A stretch of DNA of 20,000 nt from a bacterium (lineage in GTDB: Bacteria; JADJOY01): positions 60,474 to 80,473 of the forward strand of contig JAXLQJ010000035.1 of assembly GCA_046331705.1 (NCBI GenBank). Reading direction: 5' to 3'. A program made the translations under genes and the position numbers. The notes under the pieces were generated by a model, which was not told the origin of the DNA, made no database searches, and was given only the letters and a program-made list of their open reading frames with translations. Of this stretch, positions 1 to 17,926 are shown piece after piece (position 1 is the first letter of the stretch; every line of letters starts with the position of its first letter).

Positions 1-372
1 GCGCTCGCCCGCCTCCTGGTACTTCCGCGCCACACGCGCGCGCGCACGAATCGTGTCGCCGGGCCACGTGAGGGCCGTGAACCGCACCCCCAGGTCGCGA
101 AGCTGGCGTGGATCCGCCCAGCTCGTGAGCAGCTCGCCGAGGAAACCCATCGAGAGCATCCCGTGGGCGAAGACGGACGGGTAGCCGGCGCTCTTCGCGA
201 ACGGCTCGTCGACGTGGATGGGATTGAAGTCGCCCGACGCGCCGGCGTACTTCACCAGTTGGATGCGCTCGATCGGGCCCTTGGTCAGCGGCGGCAGCTC
301 GTCGCCGACGGCGAGCGCGTCGTAGCTCGTGACCATCGCCGTGGGCTCGCGGCTCGATTCCCGGTTGCTCAT
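1..372 (-). CDS. MaoC-family (hotdog-fold) dehydratase, 3' end truncated by window edge
   Basis: Manual translation from ATG at 372: MSNRESSREPTAMVTSYDALAVGDELPPLTKGPIERIQLVKYAGASGDFNPIHVDEPFAKSAGYPSVFAHGMLSMGFLG...VRFTALTWPGD. Contains the hydratase motif SGDxNPIHxD and AHGM. Not in the ORF track because there is no stop in the window. Confidence 0.92.
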   Translation of the reverse strand, partial: MSNRESSREPTAMVTSYDALAVGDELPPLTKGPIERIQLVKYAGASGDFNPIHVDEPFAKSAGYPSVFAHGMLSMGFLGELLTSWADPRQLRDLGVRFTALTWPGDTIRARARVARKYQEAGER

Positions 373-435: not shown

Positions 436-485
436 TGTCGCACGTCGTTGCGACGCTTTCTGCAACGCGTTCGCAATCTGCGACA
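436..485. promoter_or_regulatory. Candidate enhancer (UAS) sites for a sigma54 activator
   Basis: Two related imperfect palindromes, TGTCGCA-cgtcgt-TGCGAC (436-454) and TCGCA-atc-TGCGACA (471-485), about 120-170 bp upstream of the -24 element at 605. Confidence 0.5.
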
Positions 486-602
486 TGCGTCACGGAAGCG
501 CTTCGCGACGCAATGCGCCGCGAAACGGCCGATCGATCGCCGTTTTCTCGTGATTTCCTGGCGATCGAAAACCTCGTCCCGATCGCGCCCGCATCGGCAC
601 GA

Positions 603-619
603 TTGGCACGAAGCTCGCT
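603..619 (+). promoter_or_regulatory. sigma54 (-24/-12) promoter
   Basis: TTGGCACGAAGCTCGCT: GG(605-606)-N10-GC(617-618), close to TGGCACG-N4-TTGC(A/T). Predicted TSS about 630. Confidence 0.75.
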
Positions 620-629
620 AACGGAACCA

Positions 630-810
630 CGTGCGAGCTCCCCAAGGCCCCGTCGGTAATCCTGGGGAAAACAAACAACAAACGGTTTCGCGAAGGGGGG
701 CCTTGGGTTTGCTGGAGGTGTCTTGGGGGGCCGCCCTTCTCTCTCCTGGGTCGATGTAGCCGGTCTCGCGTTGCGCCAAGGGCGAGTGGGATGACCACTC
801 GCCCTTCGTG
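630..810 (+). ncRNA. Putative sigma54-dependent small RNA (~180 nt)
   Basis: Lies between the sigma54 promoter and a 12-bp hairpin. Contains an 11-bp perfect stem CCCAAGGCCCC(641-651)/GGGGCCTTGGG(697-707) enclosing an A/C-rich loop. No credible + strand CDS before the convergent gene ending at 882. Confidence 0.55.
778..809. terminator. Terminator-like hairpin, possibly bidirectional
   Basis: Perfect inverted repeat AAGGGCGAGTGG(778-789)-GATGA-CCACTCGCCCTT(795-806) between the putative sRNA (+) and the transporter 3' end (-). U-tails are short. Confidence 0.65.
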
Positions 811-881: not shown

Positions 882-2153
882 TCAACCGCCCACCAGCGCC
901 TCCAGCAAGAACCACCAGCCCACCGCGAACGCCAGGCTCACGAGTGCATACGGTGCGATCCGCGTCGCATGCGTGGCGAATCCGATCTCGGTGCCGTGAG
1001 CGCGCGCCTGCTCCACCACGATCAGATTCGCGATCGATCCGATCAGCAGCAGGTTTCCCGCATAGGTGCTGGTGAGCGCCAGCAGATACGCGAGCTCCGG
1101 CCGCCCCGCCGGCCACTCCGCCATCAGCAGCATCACCGCGGGAACGTTGCTCACCAGATTGCTCAGGACCACGCTCGCCGACGCGAGCACCGCGGGGCTG
1201 TGCAGCTCGAGGCCGGATGCGGCGAGCCAGCCCTCGACGGCCGTCATGCCGCCCGCCACGCGAAAACCCTCGATGAGCACGAACAGCGCGATGAAGAGCA
1301 GCAACAACGGCCAGTCCACCAACGACAGGAACTGGGGCGTGGTGAGACGACGACTGGTGAGCAGCACCGCAACCACGCCCAGGACCGATACCTCGCGCGG
1401 CACACGCGTGAAGAAGAGCACCACCAGCAACAGGGTGAGCAGCACCCCCTTGGTGGATTGGACGCGGTCGAACGGACGCGTCGAGGTCATCAGCTCGGGA
1501 TCGAGCGGCCAGTCGGCGACGTCGTGGGGTGCGTGCGCGCGCCCGGCGCGATCCGTCTCCAGGTCGCCGCGGCGCGCGAGCCAGACGTAGAGAAGCGCCA
1601 AGCTCACCAGCGAGGGCGGCCCGCACCACCCGAGAAAAGAGCCGAAATCGAGGTGGGCGCGCTGGCCGATGAACATGTTCTGCGGGTTGCCGATCACGGT
1701 GGCGGCGGAGCCCACGTTCGCCGCCGCCGCCAGTCCCAGCAGGAACGGCACCGGATTCCAGCCACGCCGCGCGGTGATCTCGAGCACGATGGGCGTCAGC
1801 ACCAGGCAGATGACGTCGTTCGAGAGCAGCGCCGAGAGCAGGGCGCTCGCGAGCAACGTGAACGCCAGGAAACCGCGTGCGCCGAGGCCGCTGCGCGCCG
1901 CGCGCAACGCCACCGCGCTGTAGAAGCCGCCGAGCCGGAACTGGGCGGAGAGCACCATCAGCCCGAAGAGCAGCACCAGCGTGCCGGCGTCGATCGCGTG
2001 CGTGGCCGCGGGGAACGAGATCGTGCCGGTGGCCACCATCAGCATCGCGCCGAGCAGCGCCACGCCGGTTCGATCGACGCCGAGTCCAGGGATCTCGCCG
2101 ATCGCGATGCCCACGTACGCGAGCACGAAGATCGCCACACCGAGGGTGTTCAT
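882..2153 (-). CDS. ArsB/NhaD (IT superfamily, SLC13/CitMHS-like, YbiR-type) anion transporter
   Basis: Highly hydrophobic. Motifs DRTGVALLGA, LSALLSNDVIC, AANVGSAATVIGNPQN, SNLVSNVPA, AGNLLLIGSIANLIV. Start at ATG 2153 (GTG 2165 is an alternative). Confidence 0.9.
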   Translation of the reverse strand: MNTLGVAIFVLAYVGIAIGEIPGLGVDRTGVALLGAMLMVATGTISFPAATHAIDAGTLVLLFGLMVLSAQFRLGGFYSAVALRAARSGLGARGFLAFTLLASALLSALLSNDVICLVLTPIVLEITARRGWNPVPFLLGLAAAANVGSAATVIGNPQNMFIGQRAHLDFGSFLGWCGPPSLVSLALLYVWLARRGDLETDRAGRAHAPHDVADWPLDPELMTSTRPFDRVQSTKGVLLTLLLVVLFFTRVPREVSVLGVVAVLLTSRRLTTPQFLSLVDWPLLLLFIALFVLIEGFRVAGGMTAVEGWLAASGLELHSPAVLASASVVLSNLVSNVPAVMLLMAEWPAGRPELAYLLALTSTYAGNLLLIGSIANLIVVEQARAHGTEIGFATHATRIAPYALVSLAFAVGWWFLLEALVGG

Positions 2154-2329
2154 GGCGTCGACCACCGAGAGCGAACGAGACGCCGAAACGTAGCTCCGCG
2201 CGCGTCGCCCAACCCGGTCGGCGCGGGCGAGGCGCCCGCCAGCGACGCGCCGCGCCGCCGGCGGGCGCGGCGGCGGCCGGTTACGTTGCCTCGGCCACGC
2301 GAGTCACAGCACCCCGCGGGGACGCGCGC

Positions 2330-4323: not shown

Positions 4324-5331
4324 TCAATCCCTGGCGGCGCGTCGCTTCCCGCGAGCGTGGCCGCCGGAGCGGATCACGCTCGGAGGCGTCAGCTCGCTCA
4401 GCTCCGCGCCCGGTGGCAGCACCCGCACTCCCGCGTCGGTCAATGCGCGCACGTCGCCGCCTGCGCCGAGCCCGCCCAACCAGAAGTCGGTCTTGCCGCG
4501 CCTGCGGCGGACCAGCTCGACCAACCGGGGCGCGTGCAGCGCCAACAACGCCTCGCGGGTGGCCGAGAGCGCCACGACGGCGGGCCGCGCCTGCTCGCAA
4601 GCGCGCTCGAGGTCCTCAAGCGGCAAGCTCTGGCCGAGGTAGAGCACCCGGTGCCCGTGCTGGGCGAGATGGATCGCGACGGCGAGCGCCCCGACCTCGT
4701 GCTGCTCGTCGGGCAAGCACGCCACCAGCGCCAGCGGAGCGGCGGGGTCGGCCACCGGCTGCGCCGCGAGCAGACCGTTGAGACGCGCGGCGAAGGCGGC
4801 GGACGCGAGGTGCTCCGAGGCGACGCTGAGCTTGCCTGCCGCCCACAGCTCGCCGATCTCGGCCGCCGCCGGGCGGATCACGAGCGGCAGGATCTGGGCC
4901 TCGGAAACGCCGCCGAAGGCGCGGTCGAGGGCGGCGTCGAGCGAGCGCGCATCGAGCGCGCGCGCCGCGTCGACGATCGAGCGGCGGAGCTCCTCCAGCA
5001 AGCCCGGTGAGAGCGCCGAGCGCGGCTCGGGCTCGTTCCCAGACGCGAGCTCCTTCCGCGGCCGTGCTTGCAGGCGCTCGCCCAGCTGGGCCTCCGCCAG
5101 GATCCGGTCTCGCCCTAGCACCGCGATCTCGCCGATCGAATGGCCGAGCTCGAGGCGCTCGCGGACGCGCTCCAGCACACGCAGATCGGTCTCGGTGTAG
5201 AGCCGGTGGCCGCTCGGCATCCGAACCGGCACCAAGAACTTGTGGCGCATCTCCCACGCGCGCAGCACCGCGGGCGAGAAGCCCGTGAGCCGCGACACCG
5301 TCTTCATCTTGTAGAGACCGCGTTCCTTCAA
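4324..5331 (-). CDS. CarH/LitR-type MerR-family regulator with cobalamin-binding domain (probable AdoCbl photoreceptor-repressor)
   Basis: N-terminal MerR HTH (VSRLTG..LRAWEMRH..P.R..SGHRLY), W-x9-EH motif (WAAGKLSVASEH), E-x-H-x2-G (EQHEVG), YLG and S-x-T. TTG start has a GGAGG SD. Confidence 0.9.
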   Translation of the reverse strand: MKERGLYKMKTVSRLTGFSPAVLRAWEMRHKFLVPVRMPSGHRLYTETDLRVLERVRERLELGHSIGEIAVLGRDRILAEAQLGERLQARPRKELASGNEPEPRSALSPGLLEELRRSIVDAARALDARSLDAALDRAFGGVSEAQILPLVIRPAAAEIGELWAAGKLSVASEHLASAAFAARLNGLLAAQPVADPAAPLALVACLPDEQHEVGALAVAIHLAQHGHRVLYLGQSLPLEDLERACEQARPAVVALSATREALLALHAPRLVELVRRRRGKTDFWLGGLGAGGDVRALTDAGVRVLPPGAELSELTPPSVIRSGGHARGKRRAARD

Positions 5332-7470: not shown

Positions 7471-8961
7471 TCAGAAGAGCCGTCGTTGGCGCCCGGCGTC
7501 CGGCGCGTAGCGCGCCACGTAGCCCTTCACGCGGACCTTGCGCGCGGTGTTCTCGGAGCTCATGTAACGCACCGTACCGAAGATCGGGCGCTCGGGCCCC
7601 CACGGGCGGTCGTAGCGTCCGAGCGTCCAGAAGATGCCCGAGTAGGAGTTCGGGTTGCGGCCGTCGAGCGCGTACTTGTTGTTGAGCTCGATCATCGTGG
7701 CGAGCGCCACGCGCGGGGACTCCGACCACTCGAGGATCTTCTTGCCCCACAGCATCCGCAAGTAGTTGTGGATCCTGCCCTCGCGGACGAGCTGCGTCTG
7801 CGCCGCGTTCCAGAGCGGATCGTGGGTGCGCGCGCACTCGAAGTCGTCGAGCGCGTAACGGTGCGGCCGCGGGTCGCCGGCATGTTCGCCGAGCGTCCGC
7901 TGCGCCCACTCCGGCAAGGACTCGTAGCGATCGTAATCGGACCGGTTCCAGCAGAAGTTGTAGCCGAGCTCGCGCCAGGTGATCACCTGGTCCAGGAAGC
8001 CTTCGGCCGCGGCACTCGTTCCCCACCAGCCCGCACGGCTGCCATCGGCGCGGCTCGCGAGTCGATCGGGGCTCCAGCGCTCGGCGCCGGCGATCGCGGT
8101 GAACACGTCGTGCGCCGACAGATGACCGAAGTGAAGGTAGGCCGAGAGCCCGCTGGTGACGCTTTGCTCCGGCTCGTTGCGCGCGTCCCCGTACCGGCTC
8201 AGGCACTCGGCCACGAATCGCTCGAGCGCCGTCTCCGCCGCACCGCTACCGCCCAGGGTCGGTGCGATCGGCACGGAGTGATCGATCGGCAGACGCGCGA
8301 GCGCCGCGGCGTCGCGCAGCGCCTCGAGGTCGGCTCGCGGCCAGCGCGCGACGACGCGCGCCGGCAGGCCCGCGAGGCGCGGCAGATCGCGCCCGGCGAA
8401 CGGGTCGCGTCGCGGCCGATCCGCGAGCCATTTCGGAAGCTGCTTCTGCAAGAAGCGTCGGAACGCGTACGCCGTGGGAAACGCCTGAGGCGCCGCGGCG
8501 AGCGGCAGCAAGCCGTTTCCGTCGACCGCTTCCAGTCGCACCGGCAGCGCTCGGGCGGCCGCCGCGACCATTCGCGGCAGCATGAAGCACGGGAACTCGT
8601 CCGTGACGACCACGGCGGCGTGGCTCGCCAGCGCCGCGAGCAACCCCTTTCCTGCGTCCAGCTCGTCCTCGACGTACGGGTAGTAGGTGAGCGGCGCCGA
8701 CGCCACACGTCGCTCGTTCTCCGCCAGACCGTCGAGGATGAACCGGTGCAAGCGATCGCTGGCCCAGCGATAGCCGACGCGCAACGCCTCGAGCACCACC
8801 AGCGGCTTCCCGAGGTCCGTCGCCCATTCCAGCGCGCGATCGAGGGCGAAGCTCGAATGCACGCGCCGCGTGGCGATCATCCAGTACAGGACGAAATCGC
8901 CGTCGCCGCGCACGGGCGCCTCGTTCGCCACGCGCACCCGGAGCGCGGCCACACGCGTCAC
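7471..8961 (-). CDS. phr: Class II CPD DNA photolyase
   Basis: VLYWM, SGLSAYLHFGHLS, FLDQVITWREL, THDPLWNAAQ, IHNYLRMLWGKKILEW, KYALDGRNPNSY, DRPWGPERPIFGTVRYM. True start is probably GTG 8961, overlapping the upstream TGA (GTGA), not 9078. Confidence 0.95.
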   Translation of the reverse strand: MTRVAALRVRVANEAPVRGDGDFVLYWMIATRRVHSSFALDRALEWATDLGKPLVVLEALRVGYRWASDRLHRFILDGLAENERRVASAPLTYYPYVEDELDAGKGLLAALASHAAVVVTDEFPCFMLPRMVAAAARALPVRLEAVDGNGLLPLAAAPQAFPTAYAFRRFLQKQLPKWLADRPRRDPFAGRDLPRLAGLPARVVARWPRADLEALRDAAALARLPIDHSVPIAPTLGGSGAAETALERFVAECLSRYGDARNEPEQSVTSGLSAYLHFGHLSAHDVFTAIAGAERWSPDRLASRADGSRAGWWGTSAAAEGFLDQVITWRELGYNFCWNRSDYDRYESLPEWAQRTLGEHAGDPRPHRYALDDFECARTHDPLWNAAQTQLVREGRIHNYLRMLWGKKILEWSESPRVALATMIELNNKYALDGRNPNSYSGIFWTLGRYDRPWGPERPIFGTVRYMSSENTARKVRVKGYVARYAPDAGRQRRLF

Positions 8962-15961: not shown

Positions 15962-17503
<1,542 letters not shown>

Positions 17504-17909: not shown

Positions 17910-17926
17910 TTGGCACGGCGCTCGCT
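17910..17926 (+). promoter_or_regulatory. sigma54 (-24/-12) promoter upstream of the FHA-GGDEF gene
   Basis: TTGGCACGGCGCTCGCT: GG(17912-13)-N10-GC(17924-25). Predicted TSS about 17937. Confidence 0.7.

Follow-up and report, generated by a model that had tools for sequence, protein, structure and literature searches.

A predicted multicopy RNA gene with a sigma-54-type promoter in probable Candidatus Fixabiota genomes, and a candidate small RNA partner

A stretch of 20,000 nucleotides from the bacterial lineage JADJOY01, here called the window, carries a gene for a predicted non-coding RNA of about 180 nt that is best read as an undescribed regulatory RNA under enhancer and sigma-54 control. 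The first-pass annotation, made from the DNA letters only, had proposed such an RNA, and the reading has survived comparison with related genomes because the cassette is conserved whole at unrelated loci, Rfam offers no match and non-triplet indels leave no conserved peptide. We regard it as almost certain that this is a real, lineage-restricted, multicopy RNA gene and as very probable, from its sequence features, that sigma-54 controls it. As to function, our preference goes, by a little more than an even chance, to a sponge of the RosA/RoxS kind, an RNA that would pair with a second candidate small RNA (RNA3) independently of Hfq. The proposed link to RNA3 and the predicted switch of fold are what is new here.

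The window corresponds to G000:C35:60474-80473, where G000 is the source genome (8.17 Mb, 70% G+C) and G000 to G005 are the six genomes of the phylum in the set searched. The placeholder name JADJOY01 stands for Candidatus Fixabiota, according to the accessible part of the source (PMC11382960), and G000 probably belongs there. The closest RpoN proteins are 81-97% identical within the lineage; outside it, identity over long stretches is at most 54%, to records from delta-proteobacterial and other groups. No cultured member of the phylum was found in the literature, and a search of open-access papers found nothing on the RNA family or on RNAs of the phylum. Direct reading of the sequence places the enhancer, the -24/-12 element, the structured core and the hairpin on the plus strand where they had been annotated (Table 1), and both flanking genes, identified by open reading frames and Pfam as a MaoC dehydratase and a transporter, do lie on the minus strand. 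The MaoC gene is the divergent neighbour of one RNA copy in all six genomes, and the CitMHS-family transporter adjoins an RNA copy only in G000, G001 and G002. Elsewhere in the window, the minus-strand frames 4324-5331 and 7471-8952 comprise a MerR plus B12-binding regulator (by Pfam) of CarH/LitR-like type and, near it, a gene that is presumably a photolyase; the longer reading frame has no Pfam match.

Table 1. Features of the RNA cassette, its flanks and two further candidate RNAs (window positions unless a contig is given)
Feature	Location	Strand	Basis or remark
MaoC-like dehydratase gene, divergent flank, outside the RNA	1..372	-	PF01575
Palindromic multi-site enhancer, core 456-484	436..485		Likely bound by a sigma-54 enhancer-binding protein, judged from sequence
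AT-richer element, possibly an IHF site	543..558		Loosely kept among copies
Sigma-54-type -24/-12 promoter, TCGC variant at -12	603..619	+	11/11 copies, 22-23 nt before a common core landmark
Predicted non-coding RNA, about 180 nt, probable ends	630..810	+	11 full covariance-model matches
Fold A: rod with imperfect pairing and an A/C-rich loop at its apex, predicted for the free RNA	633..734	+	Consensus fold
Fold B: 11-bp helix 641-651:697-707 with 652-696 open, predicted bound state	641..707	+	Pairs in 100% of cells
G-rich block complementary to the C-rich loop and stem of RNA3, 8-10 bp	659..668	+	Sequence complementarity
A/C-rich spacer, its length differing among copies, predicted to bulge out of the duplex	669..683	+	Alignment
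Invariant loop segment; 684-695 is a 12-nt complement of RNA3 positions 6-17	681..695	+	Alignment
Pyrimidine tail resembling an anti-Shine-Dalgarno seed	735..748	+	71% identity
Further block complementary to RNA3 39-54, 13-15 bp	759..771	+	Only in four 'a-type' copies
12-bp 3' hairpin (778-789:795-806), terminator-like or protective, weak U-tract	778..806	+	Double changes
CitMHS/SLC13-type transporter gene, convergent flank	882..2165	-	PF03600
RNA2, candidate sRNA of about 145 nt	G000:C59:about 16955-17100	-	Canonical sigma-54-type promoter, 6/6 genomes
RNA3, candidate sRNA of 100 nt	G000:C5:152975-153074	+	Canonical sigma-54-type promoter

The -24/-12 element had been called strong. Its position stands, and its match to the consensus is not perfect: the promoter reads TGGCACG-N4-TCGCT at 604-619, with GG at 605-606, GC at 617-618 and an expected +1 near 630, and every copy bears the TCGC variant at -12. 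Canonical TTGC(A/T) sites in G000 are intergenic in six of six cases and lie ahead of genes that resemble glnK and, twice, pilA. By itself the TCGC motif is found at 19 places in this genome (nine intergenic), and since it is so frequent the weight of the assignment rests on conservation and spacing. RpoN is present in all five genomes tested, and the sigma-54 activator domain is matched 49 times in G000, in about 43 cases over nearly its full length. The enhancer consists of outer arms (TGTCGCA at 436-442, TGCGACA at 479-485) and inner palindromes at 437-454 and 471-483; 22 of the 29 columns of its core are invariant, and it keeps a distance of 118-123 bp to the promoter in all 11 copies. In G000 a matrix built from these copies gives 50.6 and 47.6 for the enhancers of the two RNA copies and 20.1 for the next best site, so that, as far as sequence can tell, the activator appears dedicated to this RNA family. 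Used as a regulon search in G000, the matrix thus returned the two RNA copies only and did not pinpoint the activator. The element at 543-558, matched to what we take to be the IHF consensus, has 13 letters in common with the upstream region of RNA3, in the opposite orientation. A second TGGCAC-N5-TCGCT element lies in the window at 17911-17926 (+), 258 bp before a gene that, from its motifs, we assume to encode an FHA-GGDEF protein. A leader at G000:C1:about 241930-242070 (+) also stands behind a sigma-54-like element and presumably contains a cyclic di-GMP-I riboswitch.

Conservation in related genomes, one of the checks asked of the original proposal, is clear. BLAST together with a covariance model locates 11 complete copies at 163-205 bits in six of six genomes: two in G000, one each in G001, G002 and G004, and three each in G003 and G005, with an additional 43-bit remnant behind a tandem pair in G003. 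The MaoC-divergent copy is found in all six genomes with a varying downstream neighbour; the other five copies occupy four unrelated loci, each with enhancer, promoter and hairpin, and neighbouring genes and their orientation vary among copies. The cassette is therefore kept as a unit and its flanks are not. Mean pairwise identity among the 11 copies is 90% in the enhancer core, 82% in both promoter and hairpin and 84-100% in the RNA core, as against 45% in the enhancer-promoter spacer, 45% from -11 to +2 and 33% in the flanks. Conservation rises sharply at 633, in keeping with a start near 630. Within the RNA, the two arms of the rod stand at 84% and 92%, the loop 681-694 at 100%, the tail at 71% and the linker at 48%. 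A tree separates the copies into two sequence types (support 100/100), and type does not go with locus; the second type sits at the MaoC locus in G003 and G004, and gene conversion or replacement between the RNA paralogs is possible from these sequences. At G003:C4:166100-167060, two full tandem cassettes precede a third unit in which only the 3' hairpin is kept and two unrelated hairpins replace the core.

Beyond these genomes the searches returned very little. Among 35 distant genomes outside the phylum there was nothing beyond one 29-nt match (E 0.009). The 34 genomes reached via RpoN gave no homolog; there were two matches of 20-21 bits, and one of the genomes is a member of the phylum already counted. 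In 121 genomes from the phylum of a Polyangiaceae record there was one hairpin-only match, in a search that scored few candidates per genome and is insensitive. A 26-nt pattern with three mismatches allowed was found in none of 401 and one of 301 genomes; that single match, in an AT-rich and apparently coding stretch, has no covariance-model match and was discarded. Screening of 80 of the 101 listed viral loci with the covariance model gave a best score of 7.5 bits. A metagenome scan gave 21 matches, 16 of them unrelated; the five true ones all match known copies and add no new diversity.

The cassette has no conserved reading frame: indels of one or two letters in the RNA core are not triplets and break every frame across the 11 copies, including the two candidates for a conserved peptide, a frame of 42 codons that begins at the predicted start and a TTG frame of 14-27 codons. 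The segment 630-815 folds with z = -3.1, and none of 200 shuffles is as stable. Fold A is the favoured prediction for ten of the 11 free copies. The helix of Fold B, which is kept in every copy and shows no double change, excludes the rod. When everything from the G-rich block to the end of the invariant loop is kept from pairing, Fold B has a predicted probability of 0.92-1.0 in all 11 copies, and any ligand of this main site would flip the fold likewise. A switch from A to B would give a reason for the keeping of two mutually exclusive helices. Another arrangement, Fold C, with two short hairpins and a free linker, was rejected at a probability of at most 0.05 in every copy. Covariation, which had been put forward as a check on the stems, is thin. 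The rod does have one C-G to U-A double change (in two sequences), the 3' hairpin has two doubly changed pairs and 99% of cells pair; the main helices are invariant, and no covariation is possible in them. The six genomes are close kin and the sequences few. In the loop 681-694, all 14 columns are invariant over the 11 copies. This segment has no stable internal partner and is yet the most conserved of all, which suggests that it needs an outside one. For the variable spacer 669-683, complements near start codons show no excess.

The 3' hairpin has the 12 bp first described, all of them perfectly paired. A run of U after the hairpin is present in G001 and G002 and absent from G000, where a terminator scan made no call. 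Public sequencing gives a weak hint of transcription. Eight runs hold part of 400-900, six of them recorded as RNA. The four examined, all chosen by this stretch, each contain near-identical RNA contigs (654-964, 717-880, 772-922 and 665-751), which have a depth of 2-3 and no strand information; three pass the hairpin. None covers 400-640, a gap that at this depth is no evidence. One run also holds the 3' part of a paralog and a piece of the transporter gene.

Comparison with known families supports the claim of novelty. At the gathering score Rfam has no match in the window, and at E <= 10 over five loci there were three weak matches, none on the RNA. Hfq was found in none of five genomes, in a search whose control was positive in five of 14, and neither ProQ nor Jag_N was found in any of the five. 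The RNA is not Pxr (RF01812: no match, and none in four genomes at E <= 1), although the Pxr hallmark of a sigma-54 promoter with an upstream enhancer is apparently present, by motif and conservation. No gene for an enhancer-binding protein of the pxrR/nla19 type was recognised within about 4.5 kb of the copies, as judged from protein starts where contigs reach and from a Pfam scan of the window's own neighbours only. It is no Qrr either, a group of sRNAs that are sigma-54-dependent: there is no Rfam match, and Hfq was not found in the five genomes. A single A/C-rich tract, together with the failure to find Hfq or an Rfam match, sets it apart from CrcZ and CrcY. The CsrB/RsmY/RsmZ class was rejected, as the copies contain only one to three GGA each, though CsrA occurs in four of five genomes. 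In G000 the csrA gene is part of a flagellar cluster (G000:C34:24896-40075) with neighbours that we take to be fliW-, flgK/L- and fliC-like; such a cluster is the arrangement of protein-controlled CsrA. As for 6S RNA (RF00013), the sole match in G000 is elsewhere, at C1:294901-295081 (54.7 bits).

The search for a partner drew on at least 69 candidate orphan sigma-54-type promoters listed in G000, of which two, those of RNA2 and RNA3, were followed; both RNAs are conserved, and their loci have no Rfam match at E <= 1. RNA3 has its own conserved upstream motif, a C-rich loop and a U-tailed hairpin, and is found in four of the six genomes. In G003 and G005 it is divergent from hflX, a gene that hfq often adjoins. 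The contigs of G001 and G004 end at or just before the start of hflX, on the side that RNA3 occupies in G003 and G005, and the gene next to RNA3 in G000 and G002 gave no match in G001 and lies in different surroundings in G004. These contig ends and the missing neighbour make an assembly gap the likely reason for the lack of RNA3 in G001 and G004. A search for mRNA targets of RNA3 brought out no specific one. An invariant 11-nt pyrimidine stretch before the hairpin of RNA2 complements the ribosome-binding site of each pilA-like gene and ranks their leaders 4 and 5 of about 6,300 in G000. RNA2 has ten letters in common with the tail 735-748 and no consistent complementarity to the sponge candidate. 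The pilA-like genes themselves, at G000:C31:52696 (+) and C37:70230 (-), each lie some 100 bp behind a canonical sigma-54-type promoter, and their leaders are near-identical and purine-rich.

The case for pairing with RNA3 starts from two blocks. The loop segment 684-695 finds its reverse complement at RNA3 6-17, and the G-rich block 659-668 finds its own at RNA3 21-30; the two follow each other as in an antiparallel duplex. All 12 loop pairs form with the RNA3 of G002, G003 and G005, and one mismatch occurs in G000. The bipartite complement, a pattern defined after the match to RNA3 had been seen, has exactly one match in each of G000, G002, G003 and G005, always RNA3, and a reversed-pattern control has none. 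The computed duplex has an energy of -31 to -37 kcal/mol, which none of 300 shuffles reaches in any of the nine same-genome pairs, and the net energy after opening both RNAs is favourable at -6.6 to -19.8 kcal/mol. Among 82,576 random genomic 56-mers, 198 reach the longest helix, eight the summed pairing and two both; as some 200 such windows were open to choice (at least 69 candidates), about 0.02 (summed) and 0.005 (both) would be expected. In four copies a further block at 759-771 can pair 13-15 letters with RNA3 39-54, and in G005 one G-C pair there gives way to A-U on both RNAs.

Several results weaken this case. In G000, 18 unrelated entries (17 loci) among 5,364 seeded windows have hybrid energies of -32 to -38, against about -31 for RNA3, so RNA3 is not unique by hybrid energy alone. 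The summed pairing is unremarkable for G003a and G003b (31 and 22 of 150 shuffles). RNAcofold, which cannot model loop invasion, rates RNA3 no higher than shuffled versions of it (1 to 20 of 20 as good). Eight of the 12 loop letters form a palindrome that occurs 373 times in G000, and so common an 8-nt palindrome could mimic pairing; in favour of the pairing, its flanks match at five of ten positions in antisense and none of ten in sense. A homodimer through this palindrome was rejected, being weaker (-12.5) than the heteroduplex (-18 to -22). Taken alone, the block 659-668 is at chance level, with 6S RNA and one of the RNA2 copies fitting it too, and RNA3 may keep its complementary part for its own fold. 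The further block at 759-771 is absent from seven of the 11 copies. It contributes only -4 to -7 kcal/mol net because it overlaps the 3' hairpin of RNA3, and there the RNAs of G000a and G002 do not prefer the RNA3 of their own genome.

If the pairing holds, the following course of events may be proposed. One enhancer-binding protein would bind at 436-485, a site seen only at the RNA copies, and fire the promoter. The transcript would fold as the rod, with its A/C-rich loop exposed, and the loop segment 684-695 would pair with the free 5' end of RNA3, a step for which the complementarity is computed and the binding predicted. The block 659-668 would then invade the C-rich hairpin of RNA3, and the freed strand 697-707 would pair again with 641-651 into the second conserved helix, as predicted for 11 of 11 copies. 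The anti-Shine-Dalgarno-like loop of RNA3 would thereby be covered and its mRNA targets released; more gene copies would mean a higher capacity for titration. Since no Hfq, ProQ or Jag-type chaperone was found, the pairing would have to proceed unaided or by way of another protein. A bolder version, which we hold only tentatively and think rather doubtful, is a comparator of two sigma-54 inputs built from RNA only. Separate enhancer-binding proteins would make the sponge and the C-rich repressor RNA, and the two RNAs would annihilate each other without Hfq or ProQ. A toehold would flip the sponge between its two conserved folds, and a third sigma-54 RNA and the tail of the sponge would both aim at pilin ribosome-binding sites.

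Other readings of the same RNA have to be weighed. It may be an mRNA-pairing sRNA of Pxr or Qrr design whose tail covers ribosome-binding sites, for example those of the pilA-like genes, the match to RNA3 being secondary or due to chance, or it may do both jobs in the manner of RsaI; this is unlikely, though it deserves attention. The tail is pyrimidine-rich in all 11 copies, it resembles RNA2 in the letters noted above, and nine tails rank the two pilA-like leaders at 7-45 and 9-155 of about 6,300, whereas the other two rank them at 105-464. Pxr and MXnc1 (the latter compared by description, not by sequence) bind near the Shine-Dalgarno sequence without Hfq, and the accessible text names pilA among the targets of MXnc1 (10.1101/2025.09.11.675593). 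However, the tail is 71% conserved against 100% for the loop, its complements near start codons are within the range of shuffled sequences (25 versus 7-51), a target search in G000 returned no specific target, and a reading centred on the tail leaves the invariant loop unexplained. Complementarity has no direction, and the roles could be reversed, with the RNA as a regulator that uses its loop on mRNAs and RNA3 as its antagonist, or with the duplex as the functional unit. The RNA is indeed multicopy, like Qrr1-4 facing the single sponge QrrX as described in the accessible part of PMC9732341. We nevertheless give this reversal little credence: complements of the loop near start codons are not in excess (36 versus 0-120 in shuffles), the sense-strand matches of 11-14 nt include no convincing target, and it is RNA3 that bears the C-rich loop typical of mRNA-pairing seeds, the loop that the duplex covers.

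A decoy for an RNA-binding regulator, in the style of CrcZ or RsmZ, with the A/C-rich loop or the repeats (C/U)C(U)UGGG and GGUYYCGCG as binding sites, would suit the several copies per genome, the exposed A-rich loop, the presence of CsrA and a promoter logic like that of crcZ, with RpoN, an enhancer-binding protein and IHF (accessible part of PMC8395346). The odds are set well against it by the scarcity of GGA, by a single A-rich tract that varies in length and sequence, and by the failure to find Hfq, ProQ or Jag_N in any of five genomes. Finally, the element might have no function in trans and be a cis element of a flanking gene, a gene for a short peptide, a protein-binding array on DNA or a mobile repeat of small size. 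The signs of expression are thin and strandless, three of the four RNA contigs reach 880-964 and might derive from the convergent gene's 3' end, and some copies lie in variable regions, with the tandem pair and remnant of G003 among them. Such an explanation is highly improbable all the same, given neighbours and orientations that vary, frames broken by indels, double changes that preserve pairs in rod and hairpin, and a copy number of one to three.

The sponge reading has close parallels among published systems, described here as the accessible portions of the papers present them. Like members of the sponge class, the RNA appears to be a separately transcribed non-coding RNA, with a promoter, an enhancer and a hairpin to itself and without a conserved frame, and it has a computed complementarity to the putative seed region of another candidate sRNA. 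RosA of Bacillus subtilis, which acts on RoxS and FsrA, is likewise an RNA standing by itself, some 200 nt long, with G-rich segments that pair to the C-rich parts by which an sRNA binds mRNAs, and RsaI of Staphylococcus aureus combines G-rich pairing to an sRNA with a C-rich region of its own, comparable to the tail here (PMC8216469). RosA is controlled by sigma-A and CcpA and has single-stranded G-rich regions, GRR1 and GRR2 (PMC8216469), whereas here each partner has a sigma-54-type promoter and an enhancer unlike that of the other, the gene occurs in several copies, the G-rich block would by prediction stay buried until binding flips the fold, and Rfam has no match. Binding is demonstrated for RosA and predicted here. 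In Vibrio cholerae QrrX, and in Caulobacter CrfA, are sRNAs that inactivate other sRNAs by pairing, namely the LuxO-activated Qrr1-4 (PMC9732341) and SisA-D (PMC12559287); those pairs were found bound to Hfq, which was not found in the five genomes here. One LysR-activated QrrX faces several paralogs (PMC9732341), and in our case several paralogs face one partner. Pxr of the myxobacteria has in common a sigma-54 promoter with an enhancer, an Hfq-less host, an essential loop and, in some genomes, tandem paralogs (PMC5568312, PMC5684412). It differs in being an RNA of 108 nt with three stem-loops rather than a rod of 180 nt (PMC5568312, PMC5684412), and here no gene for an enhancer-binding protein was recognised adjoining any copy. 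CrcZ, CrcY and CrcX of Pseudomonas also have a promoter using RpoN, an enhancer-binding protein and IHF, redundant copies and an A-rich single strand (PMC8395346), but CrcZ is 407 nt long, has several A-rich motifs and titrates Hfq (PMC8395346), and neither Hfq nor an Rfam match is seen here. The RNA is a member of none of the RosA, RsaI, Pxr and CrcZ families.

The reach of the finding is limited in that the family was found in six genomes only. If the pairing holds, a sponge circuit will have been found from sequence alone, one in which sponge and target would both be driven by sigma-54 and enhancers, in cells where no known RNA chaperone was found. With RNAs of 180 and 100 nt, it would make a small model for chaperone-free loop invasion with built-in refolding. 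It also hints that comparable partners may govern the sRNAs of Hfq-less delta-proteobacterial lineages, such as the myxobacteria with their Pxr.
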